Shown: positions 4,183 to 24,248 of the stretch, one piece after another | Position numbering within the stretch: position 1 is the first letter of the stretch | Layout of the letters: each line of letters opens with the position of its first letter | Source: an uncultured Verrucomicrobiae bacterium | GTDB lineage: Bacteria > Verrucomicrobiota > Verrucomicrobiia > Chthoniobacterales > UBA10450 | Assembly: GCA_963815455.1 (NCBI GenBank) | Contig: CAWFGO010000001.1 | Location: 1,472,001 to 1,536,000 of the forward strand | Direction: 5' to 3' | DNA: 64,000 nucleotides | Program-made: the position numbers and the translations under genes | Notes under the pieces: generated by a model | Seen by the model: only the letters and a program-made list of their open reading frames with translations | Databases searched by the model: none | Told to the model about the DNA's origin: nothing

Positions 4183-4969
4183 ATGCGATCTTCGTTGCTG
4201 GTTCTGCTGGCGACAGTCACATCTCAAACTGCTTTCGCAGTTTCTTTCAAGGAATCGCCCGAGCTGGGAAAGATTTTCAAAGACAACGGCGTCGTCGGGA
4301 CATTCGTCCTGTTCGATGTGGGCGCGGACACAATGTTTGTCTGGAATCGAGACCGGGTCAGGCAGCGTTTTATCCCAGCGTCCACATTCAAGATCGCGAA
4401 CTCGCTCATCGGTCTCGACGCCGGCGCGGTGAAAAATGTCGATGAAGTGCTGCCTTACGGAGGCAAACCGCAATGGATCAAGGCCTGGGGAAAACGACAT
4501 GGGATTGCGCGAAGCGATCAAGATTTCCAACGTCGCGATTTATCAGGAACTGGCCCGCCGCATCGGCCTGGAACGAATGCGCGAAGGCGTAAAGAAGCTC
4601 GGCTACGGCAACATGGAAATCGGCAACGTGGTCGATCGTTTCTGGCTGGATGGGCCGCTAAAAATTTCTGCGATCGAACAAACGGAATTTCTGAATCGGT
4701 TGACCGCCGGGAAGCTGCCGGTCAAGCCGGGCGTTATCGAAGCGGTACGGGAAATCACGCTTCAGGAAAAAACTGCCGACTATGCGCTTCACGCCAAGAC
4801 TGGATGGTGTGCGTCAACCAATCCACAAATTGGCTGGTGGGTTGGCTGGGTGGAACGGGGCGACAAGATTTATCCATTCGCGCTCAACATCGACATGTTG
4901 ACCGACGAAGACGCCCCAAAGCGAATTTCCATCGGCCGGGAGTGTTTGAAGGCGCTGGGGAAACTGTAG
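4183..4969 (+). pseudogene. Class D (OXA-like) beta-lactamase with an apparent frameshift at ~4487-4490
   Basis: PASTFK in one frame; SNV, YGN, FWLDG, KTG, WWVGWVE in the next frame; switch at TGGGGAAAA. Confidence 0.85.
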
Positions 4970-7783: not shown

Positions 7784-7902
7784 GTCACGACCAATCTTTC
7801 CGGTCGCGAGTGTACCGAAGGGTTATCGGGTGACCAATCGAATCCTCAAAGGATCCCTCGGAGGACCAATAATCGGCCCAAATATTCCGCACCCGTGCGG
7901 AC

Positions 7903-8473
7903 CCACGGGTAAGAGCAGCCCTGGTCGAATGCGCCTGGCGCATGGTCCGTTTCCAGCCGCAATATCCACCGGTCAAAAAGAGGCTGCCCGTTTTGGCCAA
8001 AGGGGCAAAGGCCACCGGAGGGCAACGCAAAAAAGCGATCGTGGCCGTGGCGCGCCGGCTGGCGATGGATTTGTGGCGAGTGCATACCGGACGGCTCACG
8101 GCGCAACAATTGGGTTTAAATATTAAATAAATGAGTTCGAGGGGAACAGGGATGAGCTAACTCGATTAACTCAAAGAGAACGCTTTGGAACGTGGCGTGT
8201 GTCCGGAGTCTAACCTGGTCCGATCCCCGAAAACGTTCGGGGCTCGCACCGTCGCTTTAGATTGGACCGCGCCCACGTTCCGCTTCAGTTGGACGGCATA
8301 AGTCACATTGCGCTGTCAGCAAAAGCATCGACATGCGCGGATAGGAGTATCAGCCGCTGAACAACTCAGTGCGCACCAGAGGCGGAAGCGTTCCAGACCA
8401 ACTCCAACCTCAAACCCCAACAAAACCATGTAATCGCCATCCCCAAAAACTCACCGTTGACACCCTTCATAGG
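7903..8473 (+). mobile_element. Remnant IS110/IS1111-family element: transposase C-terminus, 3' non-coding region and right end; inserted in an attC
   Basis: PRVRAALVECAWRMVRFQP...KKAIVAVARRLAMDLWR (7903-8130) parallels the C-terminus of the 17111 transposase; right end TTGACACCCTTCATAGG abuts attC R'' GGTTAGAC (8474-8481). Confidence 0.85.
8186..8395 (+). ncRNA. Putative bridge/seek RNA of the IS remnant
   Basis: Outer stem 8187-8204/8264-8281, inner hairpin 8225-8242; loop GTCTAACC (8208-8215) complementary to the insertion flank; ATAGGAG at 8341-8347. Confidence 0.65.
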
Positions 8474-8916: not shown

Positions 8917-9012
8917 GTCTAACGAGACAGAGATAAGCCACGGCAGGGTGTCGTGGCAAACACACTGAACGCATTTCGAAATGAAGCCGTTGGCTTCATC
9001 GATTTGTTAGAT
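8917..9012 (-). repeat. attC
   Basis: Plus strand GTCTAAC...GTTAGAT, imperfect palindrome. Confidence 0.9.
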
Positions 9013-9454
9013 GGTCTGGTCTGAAGACGTGTCGGGTAAGAGAGCCGGTGAGACAAGTAGCACCGCCGACAAGTGCGGCTATGCCACAAAACTCCCAAGC
9101 ACCGTATGACCAAGAGCCATCGCCTGGATACGCTAGGAAAACGCCTGTCATGATGAGAAATCCTGCAGTCGCCCCGCAGGCGGTGCAAATGGGCCAGTGC
9201 CACAAAGAGGATGATGAGGGCACAAAGAGGTAAAGAGGAATCAGAACGAAAAGCCACACGGGAATGATAAAGTATGCCATGAACCAGCTCGTCGCTATCG
9301 TACTGCCGAACACTAAGCCCACATCCAGCGCGTGGCGCTGCCGAATCGCATCGACGAAGTAGGTGGACTCGAGAGCTACGAGCGTCACCACCCAGCCGGC
9401 AAGAACCGCAACAAGCGTTCCAACGAGCTGCTTGAAGATGGAGCGTGCGACCAT
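8996..9454 (-). CDS. Cassette 25: membrane protein (copy of 19241-19699)
   Basis: ATG overlaps the GTTAGAT core; about four hydrophobic segments. Confidence 0.8.
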   Translation of the reverse strand: MVARSIFKQLVGTLVAVLAGWVVTLVALESTYFVDAIRQRHALDVGLVFGSTIATSWFMAYFIIPVWLFVLIPLYLFVPSSSSLWHWPICTACGATAGFLIMTGVFLAYPGDGSWSYGAWEFCGIAALVGGATCLTGSLTRHVFRPDHLTNR

Positions 9455-9576
9455 CTAACGAGACCAAGCTCAGCGGCGGCTACCAGGAGCGCGGCTGAAA
9501 ATCTCTGGAACTGTTTTAATCATGACAAAATATGAACGCACAGCGGTCCGCCGTTCGCTCCATCGCATGGTTAGAT
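9453..9576 (-). repeat. attC
   Basis: ATCTAAC...GTTAGAT. Confidence 0.9.
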
Positions 9577-9579
9577 GAT

Positions 9580-10011
9580 TTAATGATTCTCACCATGAAT
9601 TTCTTTTCCAAGTTTTTCTCCCAACGCACGGCCTTGCGCTGCCGAATCGACGAGCTTCTGATGCGTCTCAGTATCTGTAGAAACCAAATCGTCGCTCGCC
9701 GTAATCCCAAACGAATCGATGACAAGATCCTTCCGCCGATCCTCGAATAACAAAACTGTAGTGTAGCTCGATGTCGGACTCTCGGTCAGCGTAACGGAAT
9801 ATGGAAACTCGGCGGACACATCGAGTGACGAAATCTTTGCGTCTTTGACGGCAACCAAGACGCGCTTGTGTGCTGCAGCTGATATGATGAACCACGCGGG
9901 ATGCCCTTCCATCCGATGGGCCGCTGTCAATTTGAGATCACTGCGCTGATCGCCAGCGAGTGCGAATTGGCCGGTGATGACGAAGAGGAAAACGAGAACG
10001 CGCGCTATCAT
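9580..10011 (-). CDS. Cassette 24: secreted hypothetical protein (copy of 19825-20256)
   Basis: Signal peptide ending ALA; ATG in the core site. Confidence 0.8.
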   Translation of the reverse strand: MIARVLVFLFVITGQFALAGDQRSDLKLTAAHRMEGHPAWFIISAAAHKRVLVAVKDAKISSLDVSAEFPYSVTLTESPTSSYTTVLLFEDRRKDLVIDSFGITASDDLVSTDTETHQKLVDSAAQGRALGEKLGKEIHGENH

Positions 10012-15924: not shown

Positions 15925-16049
15925 GCCTAACGAGAAAGAGCTGAGCTACCGCCACCTAGGGCGAGCTCTGCCCGAAGTGAGAGTGATTTACTCATCTGAA
16001 AAATGTGGACGCACGGCGGGTGGCGGTTAGCTCCAGCGATTGGTTAGGC
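15925..16049 (-). repeat. attC
   Basis: GCCTAAC...GTTAGGC. Confidence 0.9.
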
Positions 16050-16439
16050 CTATTGGGTGCGATGGTTCTTCGGGAGTCTGGGATCTATGGTCTCCTGAGG
16101 TTCTTCTCCGCGCAAGCGACGCTCGTGCGGCGTGAGAAAATCTCCCACAGGTGGTGTCGGCTGCTGAACGCGGTAAAAGCGAGGCTGGCCGGGGACCTCT
16201 TCTGATCGAGGCGTCGATGGCAGCGAGAAAGGATTGTACCGCGTAAGCCGGGAATAGTCGGAAGGCTGTTCCAGAGGTGACTCGCCGGGCATCGTGAATT
16301 GTGCAGTTTTCGGCCGTGGGCTACAGGCAAGAGAAACCAAAACAAGCAAGCCGCAAACAGAAACTGCGTATGAAGCAAAGTAACGCTGTTGATTGCACGA
16401 GTGATGATTGACTGTCATTTGCAAGAGCGCGCCTCGCAT
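16050..16439 (-). CDS. Cassette 11: Pro-rich hypothetical protein, possible lipoprotein
   Basis: ATG 4 nt after the core TAG; SLAC motif. Confidence 0.6.
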   Translation of the reverse strand: MRGALLQMTVNHHSCNQQRYFASYAVSVCGLLVLVSLACSPRPKTAQFTMPGESPLEQPSDYSRLTRYNPFSLPSTPRSEEVPGQPRFYRVQQPTPPVGDFLTPHERRLRGEEPQETIDPRLPKNHRTQ

Positions 16440-16955: not shown

Positions 16956-17110
16956 AGGGCCTAACGAGAACAAGCTGAGCGACCGCCGCCGAGAGCGAGC
17001 GCGGCTTCAACTGAAACGGTTTTAATCATCTGAAATGTAAACACGCGCCGGGCGGCGGTTAGATGCCATGAAGGGTTGAAAAGCGTGGGCAAAACGGGCA
17101 CACGCGTTGT

Positions 17111-18439
17111 ATGAAAAACAAAACAACAACAACCCTTCATGGCGGAGAGAAGTTTAACAATTCAAGCGCCCCTGGCAATGGGGCAGTGAGGCGGGTGTGG
17201 AAGCTTGGGCTGGACGTGGACCTGCGTTTTATGGTGGTGGCGATCCAGTGTGGGCGGGGAACGATTGGGCCGGCGCGGAAGTATACTCGCGAGCAGTTGC
17301 TCGAGTGGGTGAAGCAAAAAGTGGGTGTAGGCGATGTGGTCTACGCGGTGTGGGAATGCTGCGGATTTGGTTATACGCTGCACGAGCAATTAACTCAAGC
17401 GGGAGCAAAGAGCGTCGGGACGACCCCGATGCGATTAAATTTGGAGCGGCGGCGGAAGAACGACCGGATGGATGCGCGCGAGTTGTGTGTGCGATTGAGC
17501 CGTTACCTGGATGGGCAGAGAGAGGAATTAAGACCAATCCGAATCCCGAGCCGGGGGGAGCAACAACGGCGGGAGCTGGGGCGGCAGCGGGAGTTTTGGA
17601 AACGCCAAGTGCGGCGGCTGGAGAATCACGGGCGAGCGCTGCGGATCGAGCACGAGCATGAGACGCTGGAGGCTGGGTGGGGCGGACCGCGGAAGTGGAA
17701 ACGAATCGGGCCGCAGTGCAGCGAGTTTGTGCGCGGGCAGCTTGAACCGGTCATGGAACAGATCCGAGCGGCCAAAGCGCAATTGGATCGGTTGACCCAG
17801 GAGATTGAAGCGCTGGTGAGGGAAGAAAAAATCCCGACGGGATTGGGTGCGCTAACGGTATCGCTGATCGACGGGGAGGTGTGCGATTGGCAACGCTTCA
17901 AGCATCGCAAAGCCGTGGGCAGTTACACTGGGTGTTGTCCTAGCGAATACAGTTCGGCCGGGATCCAGCGTTTTGGAAGCATCGACCGGCACGGCAACAA
18001 ACATTTGCGCACGCTCCTGGTCGAGGCGGTCTGGCGACTTCTTCGCTGGCAGCCTAACTGGCATGCTCGTCAGAAATATCTGGAGAAATTAAGGCACGGC
18101 GCCTCGCTGAAAAAGAAAATCGCAGTGGCCCTGGCCCGGCAACTGGCCATAGACATCTGGCGCTGGCGAACCGGCCGGGCCAGTGCCGCCGAACTGGGCT
18201 GGAGCCTGTCTAACATTCCAGGTGAAACCCTAACAAACAGATTTAACCCTCAGCTTTTACGAAACGGAACTTCCAAGCAAAGTTTGATTTGGCCGCAGGG
18301 TGGAACGCTGCTCGGCGCTGGAGCTGGTCCTTTGAAACGAAGGGATCATCGCTTAGATGGGGCGCGTTCCGCCCAAAGCGGCTTCCCAAAGTCAGGCACG
18401 ACATCATGGGCTCGCACAACAAAAGCGATGCTCGAATAG
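17111..18439 (+). CDS. IS110-family DEDD transposase/recombinase; last ~75 codons overlap the 3' non-coding region
   Basis: LGLDVD, WECCG, RKNDRMDA (DEDD); SYTGCCPSEYSSAG (catalytic Ser); GNKHLRTLLVEA; VALARQLA. Confidence 0.93.
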   Translation: MKNKTTTTLHGGEKFNNSSAPGNGAVRRVWKLGLDVDLRFMVVAIQCGRGTIGPARKYTREQLLEWVKQKVGVGDVVYAVWECCGFGYTLHEQLTQAGAKSVGTTPMRLNLERRRKNDRMDARELCVRLSRYLDGQREELRPIRIPSRGEQQRRELGRQREFWKRQVRRLENHGRALRIEHEHETLEAGWGGPRKWKRIGPQCSEFVRGQLEPVMEQIRAAKAQLDRLTQEIEALVREEKIPTGLGALTVSLIDGEVCDWQRFKHRKAVGSYTGCCPSEYSSAGIQRFGSIDRHGNKHLRTLLVEAVWRLLRWQPNWHARQKYLEKLRHGASLKKKIAVALARQLAIDIWRWRTGRASAAELGWSLSNIPGETLTNRFNPQLLRNGTSKQSLIWPQGGTLLGAGAGPLKRRDHRLDGARSAQSGFPKSGTTSWARTTKAMLE

Positions 18440-18495
18440 GAGCTGGTGACTCGCCCCGGCGAGACAACACGACAGAGGGAAGCTGCACCCTGCGG
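18293..18495 (+). ncRNA. Putative bridge/seek RNA
   Basis: Stems 18298-18308/18364-18374 and 18378-18387/18477-18486; loop GCGCTGGAGC (18315-18324) complementary to the target flank; ATAGGAG (18436-18442) matches the predicted circle junction. Confidence 0.7.
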
Positions 18496-18616
18496 ATCAA
18501 ACCACTAAAGATTGGAAAAACCGGGAAAGGAAAAAACTAAAGAAAAACAAACAATACCCGTTCCACGGTTGACAACCCTCATAGGCGCTCCAGCGCTTGG
18601 TTAGACCTATTCGTGA

Positions 18617-19161: not shown

Positions 19162-19257
19162 GTCTAACGAGACAGAGATAAGCCACGGCAGGGTGTCGTG
19201 GCAAACACACTGAACGCATTTCGAAATGGGGCCGTTGGCTTCATCGATTTGTTAGAT
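19162..19257 (-). repeat. attC
   Basis: Near-identical to 8917-9012. Confidence 0.9.
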
Positions 19258-19699
19258 GGTCTGGTCTGAAGACGTGTCGGGTAAGAGAGCCGGTGAGACA
19301 AGTAGCACCGCCGACAAGTGCGGCTATGCCACAAAACTCCCAAGCACCGTATGACCAAGAGCCATCGCCTGGATACGCTAGGAAAACGCCTGTCATGATG
19401 AGAAATCCTGCAGTCGCCCCGCAGGCGGTGCAAATGGGCCAGTGCCACAAAGAGGATGATGAGGGCACAAAGAGGTAAAGAGGAATCAGAACGAAAAGCC
19501 ACACGGGAATGATAAAGTATGCCATGAACCAGCTCGTCGCTATCGTACTGCCGAACACTAAGCCCACATCCAGCGCGTGGCGCTGCCGAATCGCATCGAC
19601 GAAGTAGGTGGACTCGAGAGCTACGAGCGTCACCACCCAGCCGGCAAGAACCGCAACAAGCGTTCCAACGAGCTGCTTGAAGATGGAGCGTGCGACCAT
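19241..19699 (-). CDS. Cassette 8: membrane protein
   Basis: Same protein as 8996-9454. Confidence 0.8.
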   Translation of the reverse strand: MVARSIFKQLVGTLVAVLAGWVVTLVALESTYFVDAIRQRHALDVGLVFGSTIATSWFMAYFIIPVWLFVLIPLYLFVPSSSSLWHWPICTACGATAGFLIMTGVFLAYPGDGSWSYGAWEFCGIAALVGGATCLTGSLTRHVFRPDHLTNR

Positions 19700-19821
19700 C
19701 TAACGAGACCAAGCTCAGCGGCGGCTACCAGGAGCGCGGCTGAAAATCTCTGGAACTGTTTTAATCATGACAAAATGTGAACGCACAGCGGTCCGCCGTT
19801 CGCTCCATCGCATGGTTAGAT
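19698..19821 (-). repeat. attC
   Basis: Near-identical to 9453-9576. Confidence 0.9.
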
Positions 19822-19824
19822 GAT

Positions 19825-20256
19825 TTAATGATTCTCACCATGAATTTCTTTTCCAAGTTTTTCTCCCAACGCACGGCCTTGCGCTGCCGAATCGACGAGC
19901 TTCTGATGCGTCTCAGTATCTGTAGAAACCAAATCGTCGCTCGCCGTAATCCCAAACGAATCGATGACAAGATCCTTCCGCCGATCCTCGAATAACAAAA
20001 CTGTAGTGTAGCTCGATGTCGGACTCTCGGTCAGCGTAACGGAATATGGAAACTCGGCGGACACATCGAGTGACGAAATCTTTGCGTCTTTGACGGCAAC
20101 CAAGACGCGCTTGTGTGCTGCAGCTGATATGATGAACCACGCGGGATGCCCTTCCATCCGATGGGCCGCTGTCAATTTGAGATCACTGCGCTGATCGCCA
20201 GCGAGTGCGAATTGGCCGGTGATGACGAAGAGGAAAACGAGAACGCGCGCTATCAT
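19825..20256 (-). CDS. Cassette 7: secreted hypothetical protein
   Basis: Same protein as 9580-10011. Confidence 0.8.
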   Translation of the reverse strand: MIARVLVFLFVITGQFALAGDQRSDLKLTAAHRMEGHPAWFIISAAAHKRVLVAVKDAKISSLDVSAEFPYSVTLTESPTSSYTTVLLFEDRRKDLVIDSFGITASDDLVSTDTETHQKLVDSAAQGRALGEKLGKEIHGENH

Positions 20257-23179: not shown

Positions 23180-23236
23180 GCCTAACGAGAATTAGACGAA
23201 GGTTCGTAATTAAAGGCGAACATTTTTTCGTCTAAC
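23180..23236 (-). other. attI site
   Basis: Minus strand GTCTAAT-TCTC-GTTAGGC (L and R boxes), plus an upstream direct-repeat GTTAGAC that overlaps the intI stop. Confidence 0.8.
23182..23223 (-). CDS. attI leader mini-ORF MFAFNYEPSSNSR*
   Basis: Starts 8 nt after the intI stop and ends on the TAG of the attI core. Confidence 0.55.
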   Translation of the reverse strand: MFAFNYEPSSNSR

Positions 23237-24248
23237 TAGGTTGAGGGTTCGAAGGGGGGCGGCAGTCGACAGGGCTGCGTACCCCCAGGCCGGGTTTATC
23301 CAATACATGAGTGTAAATCATTGTGGTTGAGACATCTTTGTGTCCAAGCAGTGCCTGAACGGTGCGAATATCGGAGCCGGCCTGGAGCAAATGGGTGGCA
23401 AAACTGTGTCGAAAGGTATGACAACTGGCCGGTTTGGCAATCCCGGCCCGTTGAATCGCCAGTTTTACCGCGTTTTGGAGGTTTTTTTCCTGAACGTGAT
23501 GCCTGCGAATCTCTCCCGAGCGCGGGTCGAGCGAGAGCTTGGCGGCCGGGAACACATATTGCCACGCCCAAGAGCGATCGGCGTTGCGATATTTGCGGGC
23601 CAAGGCGAAAGGCAGGTAGACTCTGCCCCGGCCTGCGGCGAGGTCCTGCCGGTGCAGCGCTCGCACCCGGCCAAGGTGCAGGTGCAATTCTTCGCGTCCT
23701 GCTTCCGGCAGAAGGGTAACTCGATCGCGCTGGCCTTTCCCGTCGCGAACAATAATCCGGTTGAGCCCCAAATCCACATCCTTGACGCGCAAGCGCACGC
23801 ACTCCATCAGACGCAGTCCGCTGCCGTAGAGTAAAAGGGCCATGAGATGGTATTCGGCTCTGAGTTGCGCGAGCACTGCGTGCGCCTCCTCCGGGGTGAA
23901 GACGACTGGAATTTTGGCTGGCCGTTTGACCCGCTCCGCATCGATGAAGTCGAGTTTTGTATTCAGTACCTCCTGATAAAGGAACAACAGAGCGGACAGA
24001 GCCTGGTTCTGAGTGGACGCAGCCACATGTTTGTTTACGGCCAGATGAGTGAGGAAACGGGTAATCTCCTCTTCGCCCATTTCGTTGGGGTGGCGTTTGC
24101 GATGAAAGAGGATGTAACGCCGGATCCAATCTAGGTAGGCCTGCTCGGTGCGGATGCTGTAGTGTTTTACTCGCAATTGCCAGCGAACGCGGTCGAGCAA
24201 CTTGGGCGACGAAGCGACGGTGGCGGTGGAGGGCGGCACGGTCGCCAT
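23232..24248 (-). CDS. intI: Integron integrase
   Basis: [33 protein letters not shown], IntI-specific patch [11 protein letters not shown]...[28 protein letters not shown]. Confidence 0.97.

Follow-up and report, generated by a model that had tools for sequence, protein, structure and literature searches.

The stretch of DNA analysed here (the window) comprises 64,000 nucleotides of contig CAWFGO010000001.1 from an uncultured Verrucomicrobiae bacterium (host genome G000) and carries a chromosomal integron, in which an integrase gene is accompanied by an array of short open reading frames (ORFs), with attC sites of ~123 bp between them, that reaches ~8474. One of these sites, beginning at 16960, is interrupted by an insertion sequence (IS) that lies on the plus strand, antisense to the cassette array (Table 1). 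We propose, with a probability of roughly 0.85, that this is an IS110-family element with IS1111-type ends, whose downstream bridge RNA of ~200 nt would guide its DEDD recombinase to a single position of attC by base pairing. The ends, the copy number, the constant insertion point, the catalytic residues, the covarying stems and three guides that track target or donor are directly supported by the data described below.

Table 1. Features of the window discussed in the text (positions counted from its first letter; a slash marks a junction).
Feature	Position	Strand	Remarks
Truncated sister element (site B)	7897..8473	+	distal end of the same array; ends CATAGG/GGTTAG; whole RNA kept
Distal part of interrupted attC (R' box, L' box, central region)	16960..17060	-	pattern as in sibling attCs
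Insertion sequence, IS110 family, IS1111-type architecture	17061..18585	+	1525 bp; ends from five G000 copies and 70 distinct both-end homologue sites
Left extension AGATGCC (7 nt)	17061..17067	+	donor core AG (17061-17062) and five donor bases
Left sub-terminal inverted repeat ATGAAGGGTTG	17068..17078	+	
DEDD recombinase/transposase ORF	17111..18439	+	442 aa; D35, E82, D118, D121, S282; NF033542 160.1 bits (cut-off 140)
Predicted bridge/seek RNA	18294..18494	+	~200 nt; closed by CGCAGGG (18294-18300) and CCCTGCG (18488-18494)
Target-binding domain	18302..18370	+	12x12 loop (18314-18325, 18348-18359) between two covarying stems, helices 2 and 3
5' target guide CGCTGGAG with core bases CT	18316..18325	+	complement of core and right flank; covariation over 71 sites
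3' target guide CGCTT, core AG, handshake AT(G)	18350..18359	+	covariation over 71 left flanks
Donor-binding domain	18391..18450	+	13x13 loop (18395-18407, 18434-18446); closed by GTCA with TGAC and GGGC with GCTC; helices 5 and 6
Tentative 5' donor guide GACATCA (against GGCATCT)	18400..18406	+	placed by loop symmetry; 5/7 (6/7 in one basal lineage)
3' donor guide ATAGG, core AG, handshake CT	18436..18444	+	handshake in the same sense as target +3, +4
Right end	18569..18585	+	-35-like TTGACA 18569-18574; right inverted repeat CAACCCTCAT 18573-18582; 3-nt extension AGG
Proximal part of interrupted attC	18586..18606	-	target core 18586-18587; 18586 is the variable extrahelical base
Integron integrase of host array	23232..24248	-	TIGR02249 454.5 bits (cut-off 265)

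The boundaries of the element follow from its five copies in G000, each of which lies in an attC at GTT/NGCT and starts with AGATGCC directly after GTT (DNA identity 98.6-100% for four of them and 96% for one, on a short contig). In the four copies with a readable right end, the base after CATAGG is C, G, A and C, and GCTCCA follows. As the first base of the right flank varies and the AGATGCC start is constant, the ends are fixed, with extensions of 7 nt (left) and 3 nt (right) outside sub-terminal inverted repeats and no target duplication. An earlier first-pass annotation, made from the letters of the window alone, had proposed the same ends, offsets and length. The window copy by itself is ambiguous by one base, and a boundary one base further right was ruled out by the variable base in the other copies. 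Its junctions read GGCGGTT/AGATGCC at 17060/17061 and CATAGG/CGCTCC at 18585/18586; the left one (17058-17065, GTTAGATG) is letter-identical to the end of a normal attC R box. The two inverted repeats share 10 matches with a one-base bulge, a little below the usual IS1111 length of 11-13, and left ends taken without assuming a sequence read AGATGCC or AGATGGC in 83 of 84 cases. The -35 box of the predicted junction promoter is conserved among homologues. No circle junction, that is, no joint of element end to element start, was found in 140 loci, in viral contigs or in four soil sequencing runs, the last of which contain relatives of the element as well as empty attCs. A 1369-base soil contig with apparent internal skips was considered as a mini-element and rejected, its length being equal to its span, as expected of a diverged full relative.

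The encoded protein has the features by which IS110-family recombinases are recognized, a RuvC-like DEDD tetrad and a PF02371 domain (57.3 bits) with a catalytic serine, S282, which is followed by A rather than the usual G; the Pfam model DEDD_Tnp_IS110 scores 16.8 bits only, under its cut-off of 29. Relatives were collected at 136 loci (numbered L), one contributing search supplying its best 80 of 115 matches. Transposase matches (E <= 1e-20, counts including G000) occur in 52 of 301 genomes of the host family and in 9 of 401 genomes of the host phylum, and the ten genomes with close relatives are recorded as Verrucomicrobiota. One hundred distinct loci at an identity of at least 55% share the insertion point GTT/NGCT (site A), and 22 loci at 36-44% identity, with the guide CTAACC, form a sister clade inserted at CGNNT/GGTTAG (site B), before GGTTAG and 13 nt from site A; 12 loci of more distant genomes occupy other targets, where their flanks are readable. 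The tetrad is kept in 31-32 of the 32 site-A rows and aligns with four named IS proteins. In a quick tree, site A (33 rows) and site B (22 rows) each fall on one side of a branch, both apart from IS4321, IS5708, ISEc45 and ISSso6, a separation whose deep placement is unsure given only four references and long branches. The site-B tallies take in one locus, L126 (from G553, flagged unpublished), as 1 of 20-22 rows, and no conclusion hinges on it.

Downstream of the conserved transposase domain, the first-pass annotation had pointed to a structured region of two domains, and this description has held up: none of 100 shuffled versions folds as well as the region itself (z = -3.0), and compensatory stems recur in an alignment of 29 homologues (the window and 28 of 32 cluster representatives; the representative of the cluster to which the window belongs was excluded, as were three rows that are short or truncated). 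From these 29 sequences RNAalifold recovers the target domain unaided, with a 12x12 internal loop in which both guides are unpaired. In a six-helix model 95.9% of the cells are paired and 18 of the 41 pairs show two-sided changes, with 0 of 500 shuffles as high and slid controls at or below 51%, figures that are favoured by the derivation of the model from the same 29 sequences. The predicted RNA thus contains two internal loops within a conserved fold, as do bridge RNAs; it occupies a long non-coding region that lies downstream of the gene for the transposase (tnp), and its match to the top strand lies 5' of its match to the bottom strand, as in IS1111 elements. An Rfam scan of the window gave no match, and a promoter scan gave no plus-strand sigma-70 site upstream of the predicted RNA.

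The first loop would read the target. The 10-mer GCGCTGGAGC (18315-18324), which had been put forward as a guide from the window alone, is the exact reverse complement of the right flank (18587-18596) and occurs at those two places only in the 64 kb. It does covary with the right flank over 71 sites, and its limits had to be shifted by one base: G18315 is no guide position, its partner at +11 matching in just 25 of 70 sites, and T18325 extends the guide over the core. In the guide-flank table (88 rows minus 5 duplicates and the four aberrant loci L002, L005, L059 and L084), the 5' target guide fits the right flank from +3 to +9 at 71, 71, 68, 71, 70, 62 and 68 of 71 sites, and at +10 at 65 of 70. 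The fit follows base changes: at +5, guides calling for C, G or T face that base in 44/44, 11/12 and 13/15 cases; at +7 the figures are 67/68 for A and 3/3 for G, and at +8 they are 20/20 for T and 42/51 for G; the guide variants CTGCAG, CTTCAT, CTCCAT and CTCCGG are each matched by a flank variant. When guides were permuted among transposase clusters, a procedure that removes kinship only in part, 5.89+/-0.11 of 7 positions agreed, as against 6.69 observed (0/5000 permutations; 29 clusters). Covariation between loop and flank among homologues, the absence of which had been named beforehand as fatal to a guide RNA, is hence present.

The partner guide for the target, which the first-pass annotation had been unable to assign, is CGCTT-AG (18350-18356), which reads in the same sense as the left flank CGGTT, with one mismatch, and as the first five bases of the element. 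Homologues carry CGGTT, CCGTT, CTGTT or CGGTC together with the corresponding left flanks (56, 59, 41, 70 and 69 of 71 by position), and permutation among clusters gave 3.80+/-0.08 of 5, with 4.20 observed (0/5000; 30 clusters). The choice of sites within G000 points the same way. A scan of this genome yielded 70 candidate attCs, of which 9 were set aside as non-attC, and the exact 7-mer is present at 3 of 4 readable occupied sites vs 3 of the 61 empty attCs (Fisher p = 0.002); moreover, the G000 element with a CTGCAG guide occupies a CTGCAGC attC.

The second loop would read the donor. ATAGGAG (18436-18442), proposed at the outset as a match to the predicted circle junction, behaves as a 3' donor guide in relatives: it equals the last five bases of the element in 28 of 28 distant relatives (ATAGG in 20 and ATAGC in 8, five of the 8 being copies of one element), the first base after the donor core equals target +3 in 27 of the 28, and the 17 nt around it do not vary in any of the 29 aligned homologues. 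The ATAGC-AG guide accompanies the right end CATAGC and non-attC targets in L013-L017, L021, L023, L025 and L027; genome G054 has five copies of a CATAGC-ended relative with the common target AGGGGCTTT. Handshake bases follow the 3' guides, ATG in the target loop in 82 of 84 aligned rows and, in the donor loop, a first base that is C, T or G by clade and tracks target +3, so that they fit positions 6-7 of the other DNA, as in bridge RNAs. AG, or its complement CT, stands as the core in all four loop strands. When the 330-nt non-coding region was shuffled 3000 times, the best match attained the observed score in no shuffle for the 5' target guide (11/11), in 0.6% for the 3' target guide (9/10), in 0.13% for the 3' donor guide (9/9) and in 97% for the 5' donor guide (5/7), the other assignment missing from the first-pass annotation and one that we place tentatively. 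Loop-flank covariation, compensatory stems, a donor guide that tracks the element end and the selection of matching attC variants within one genome argue for the lineage-specialised, RNA-guided element that the annotation had suggested.

The two junctions also differ in their cores. Among 70 distinct sites with both ends, the left core is AG in all 70, the right core is other than AG in 65, and none is reversed; target and donor cores, expected to be identical for a bridge RNA, are therefore unequal at 65 of the 70. At site B (n = 20), the arrangement of donor core left and target core right holds for 17 loci; GG stands at both junctions in 2, and 1 is swapped. A core left of the junction (TT vs GG) was tried and rejected, as no guide covers it. 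When the attC bottom strand folds, the base left unpaired is the one that is free in the target core: the equivalent of base 18586 in the sibling attC at 15926-16050 is unpaired when folded, and across the 70 scan hits in G000 (61 of them true empty attCs) this extrahelical base is G in 26, C in 25 and A in 13.

These features can be arranged into a mechanism by analogy with work on IS621 and IS1111 elements. The element would be copied out as a circle with the junction CATAGG/AGATGCC, TTGACA upstream acting as a junction promoter; the target loop would open the attC duplex with one guide per strand, the two overlapping at the 2-nt core, and the donor loop would act likewise on the circle junction. 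On the attC top strand (opposite tnp), the target would read GCTGGAG-CN-AACCG and the donor ATGGCAT-CT-CCTAT, which is the 7+2+5 layout of IS621 with a CT core; the 5' guide would then correspond to the left guide of IS621 and the 3' guide to its right guide, and the bases after each 3' guide to the handshake bases, which in IS621 pair with positions 6-7 of the other DNA (PMC11208158). Such a layout on the opposite strand would account for why the guides of IS1111 elements come in 'reversed' order. Cleavage 3' of the core on the top strand, as described for IS621 (PMC11208158), would put the donor core on the left and the target core on the right, exactly the junctions seen, and the genome-fixed product would arise most simply from exchange of one strand, completed by replication or directed repair. 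By IS621 numbering the stagger would be four bases, and a second-strand product would begin with target bases, which 1 of 84 left ends resembles. Insertion divides the L box beside the extrahelical base and would inactivate the attC. The asymmetry of the junctions fits one-strand integration as reported for the related CazIS110-1 (bioRxiv 10.1101/2025.10.25.684509), if not uniquely; natural IS621 junctions as drawn are equally one-sided, and asymmetry is thus not peculiar to this element.

From here we would go further only at even odds, to the following combined proposal: that the seekRNA order of IS1111 elements is the IS621 bridge architecture on the opposite strand (core and handshake included, the 7- and 3-nt extensions representing core and donor arms), and that the Verrucomicrobiota clade gained attC targeting independently of ISKpn4, was retargeted to a new pair of attC positions, follows the attC variants of its host at the level of single bases, accepts a free base in the core where attC has its extrahelical position and has junctions that record natural one-strand integration.

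Several observations weigh against guidance as we describe it. Covariation reflects co-adaptation rather than pairing, and related elements have guides and hosts in common. At -3, where every target has G, the 3' target guide reads C in 30 of 71 sites, the window copy included. Taken by itself, the 5' donor guide is at chance level; RNAalifold retains just the inner helix of the donor domain and lets the 3' donor guide pair with a stretch further upstream, and single-sequence folds close both loops in part. Handshake covariation amounts to three clades plus IS4321 only, and the second handshake base misfits in the sister clade (TA vs TT). One site-B locus of the 20, L125, has the swapped cores, and L002 lacks the left extension and shows target bases at its left junction; both may be rare second-strand products or assembly errors. 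Some metagenome contigs look chimeric (L080, L087, L088 and L091 have the same right flank and differing left flanks). Finally, the predicted junction promoter has a poor -10 box (CATGAA, 17 bp spacing).

The weak 5' donor guide speaks for a target-only seekRNA, in which the first domain alone guides, the ends are read by the protein from their long inverted repeats, and a role as precursor, scaffold or vestige falls to the second domain; the closed donor guide in the RNAalifold structure agrees with this, as does ISEc11, for which target-only RNAs of 70-100 nt dominate and suffice (PMC11187229). We nonetheless regard it as unlikely, because the invariant 17 nt contain a guide that follows the element end (ATAGC 8/8, ATAGG 20/20) and target +3, and because CazIS110-1 needed its full-length RNA for circles and full integration (bioRxiv 10.1101/2025.10.25.684509). 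Harder to set aside, and only somewhat short of an even chance, is the same RNA guidance with exchange of both strands, by one aligned cut or by staggered cuts with strand-biased repair, in which case the asymmetry would be uninformative on one-strand integration. IS621 structures show second-strand cleavage, with mismatch repair suggested by their authors (PMC11208158), IS1111 ends are described as abutted without duplication, and sequence alone cannot separate the two chemistries; on the other hand, unbiased staggered resolution predicts target bases at about half of the left junctions, where we see 1/84, imperfect at that, and in CazIS110-1 integration of one strand exceeded the other > 1,300-fold (bioRxiv 10.1101/2025.10.25.684509).

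That the protein instead reads the folded, single-stranded attC hairpin, the loop matches being captured attC fragments without a guiding role, strikes us as very improbable. The cut does adjoin an extrahelical base, 14 non-attC sites of G000 with 11/12 matches are all empty, and an R box is present in 60 of 78 right flanks, with a nested sister element in another 2. Yet guides change with attC variants that differ by one base and move along with the point of insertion, relatives carrying other guides occupy other targets, and some insertions lie beside linear matches outside attCs. Among the 16 right flanks without an R box, three adjoin another IS, several may belong to chimeric contigs and one adjoins a tRNA-Asn gene (L054, 1991-2064) at a linear guide match, which indicates that a hairpin target is not required. 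A last alternative concerns the window copy alone: an extra A near 18212, without counterpart in the other four copies, removes the normal stop, so that the 442-aa frame crosses the RNA region. The copies on contigs C2 and C3 encode 373 aa, the two other G000 copies have different frameshifts, and homologues measure 367-387 aa. The window copy may thus be crippled by its 69-residue tail and by translation over the RNA, movable only with C2/C3 protein, or the extra base may be a sequencing error; this is a tenable reading that we do not favour, the change falling after the conserved domain (residue 368) and leaving catalytic residues, ends and guides unaltered.

Other attC-seeking elements surround the one described here. 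The truncated sister element at the far end of the window array has the guides GTCTAA-CC (8208-8215), GCTTT-AG (8254-8260) and ATAGG-AG-TA (8341-8349), and more such remnants ending CATAGG/GGTTAG lie on contig C1 of G000 near 1256385 (-) and 196839 (-). Degenerate IS footprints are known to mark array ends. A second site-A element on C1 (~1713595-1715197), 37.5% identical in protein, carries the guide CTCTGCAG-CT, lies in a CTGCAGC attC and has a 6-nt left extension and GG on either side. At ~1708905-1710600, in an attC between GCTGCATC and GGTTAG, lies an IS110-family element whose long non-coding region is upstream, a fourth attC-seeking type there. In L071 and L101 a site-B element starts 13 nt past a site-A element within one attC, and in L055, L068 and L111 the right flank is another IS with ends like GGCTGTGTGAAAA, ~11 nt further along the same attC, putatively IS1182-like by the start of its protein. 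Elsewhere in the window, a cassette pair is duplicated within the array (8918-10011 vs 19163-20256, 3 mismatches in 1094 bases), and a gene with a transpeptidase domain (~4183-4969, +), presumably akin to a class D beta-lactamase by its motifs, is broken into two frames near 4490.

The basic phenomenon of attC-seeking IS1111 elements and their RNAs is already published. What the present clade adds is a map of an IS1111-type bridge RNA together with an extensive natural record of its reprogramming, which shows engineers which positions matter or are tolerated; a free core base would widen the choice of targets. Reading the RNA on the opposite strand yields predictions for the disagreement between seekRNA and bridge RNA, namely the strand cut, the cut position and the need for a second loop. 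G000 harbours four or more distinct IS110/IS1111 types directed to one and the same end of attC, so that elements of this kind probably immobilise or disrupt the cassette arrays of soil Verrucomicrobiota.

Akin to the window element, members of the IS1111-attC group (ISKpn4, ISPst6, ISPa21, ISPa25), a group confirmed by PMC3001079, PMC11616780 and PMC3589745, have IS1111-type ends, a downstream guide RNA with the top-strand match 5' of the bottom-strand match, and antisense insertions near the same (5') attC end (PMC3001079); seekRNAs of ISKpn4 and ISPst6 have been sequenced and the reversed match order reported (PMC11187229), and bridge RNA predictions cover 93% of IS1111 elements, three being drawn with their cores (PMC11208160). 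The position differs, since ISKpn4, ISPst6 and ISPa25 cut at TTGA[AG]/CG...GTTAG (PMC13604230, Table 1), which, aligned on the GTTAG box, is 8 nt right of site A and 5 nt left of site B. The proteins also seem to be set apart, if indirectly: ISKpn4 is 35% and 30% identical to IS5708 and IS4321 and the window transposase 24% and 25%; eight of the closest kin of ISKpn4 among the matches listed share 76-90% identity with it, and the window transposase never exceeds 29.3% among the best 40 plasmid matches listed. The hosts of the site-A clade are recorded as Verrucomicrobiota, unlike those of the ISKpn4 group. Identity to the four named IS110/IS1111 proteins compared is 24-28%, the values for IS4321 and IS5708 lying below that for ISEc45, so that the transposase stands outside a tight IS1111 protein cluster. 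Its best named matches, ISEc45 and ISSso6 (28% and 27%), belong with ISCARN28 to a branch that shares the downstream non-coding region; this branch falls outside the clade in the tree and is not attC-targeting in two records. In the curated transposase set of PMC11187229, the motifs GCCP, DLWR and VEAVW had 0 matches, CGFG matched only ISEc45 and no clade member was present, and a literature search mostly of titles and abstract starts returned no Verrucomicrobiota attC-targeting clade and no IS1111 handshake guides, leaving room for older descriptions of other attC positions.

IS4321/IS5075, of the IS1111 family and targeting Tn21 inverted repeats, resembles the window element in its 7/3 extensions and in a donor core TA on the left and a target core TT on the right, and the plasmid record of IS4321 allows the same four-guide reading (9/9, 6/7, 6/7 and 8/8), although its protein is only 25% identical and its target another. 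IS621 has in common with the window element two internal loops, guides (the 5' donor guide tentatively among them) that overlap at a 2-nt core and a short natural pairing on the 5-nt side and, when read on the opposite strand, the 7+2+5 layout, CT core and handshake bases; it differs in that the window element has its RNA downstream of the gene, long sub-terminal repeats and a free second target core base, where T9 is almost invariant in IS621 (PMC11208158). A sequence search of the PDB gave no match to solved structures. Probably working like IS621 and built like an IS1111 element, yet outside the IS1111 protein cluster and away from the insertion point of ISKpn4, the element would be a variant distinct from both groups, and by this comparison we consider it a separate soil lineage that likely works like known bridge-RNA recombinases and is aimed at a different attC position.

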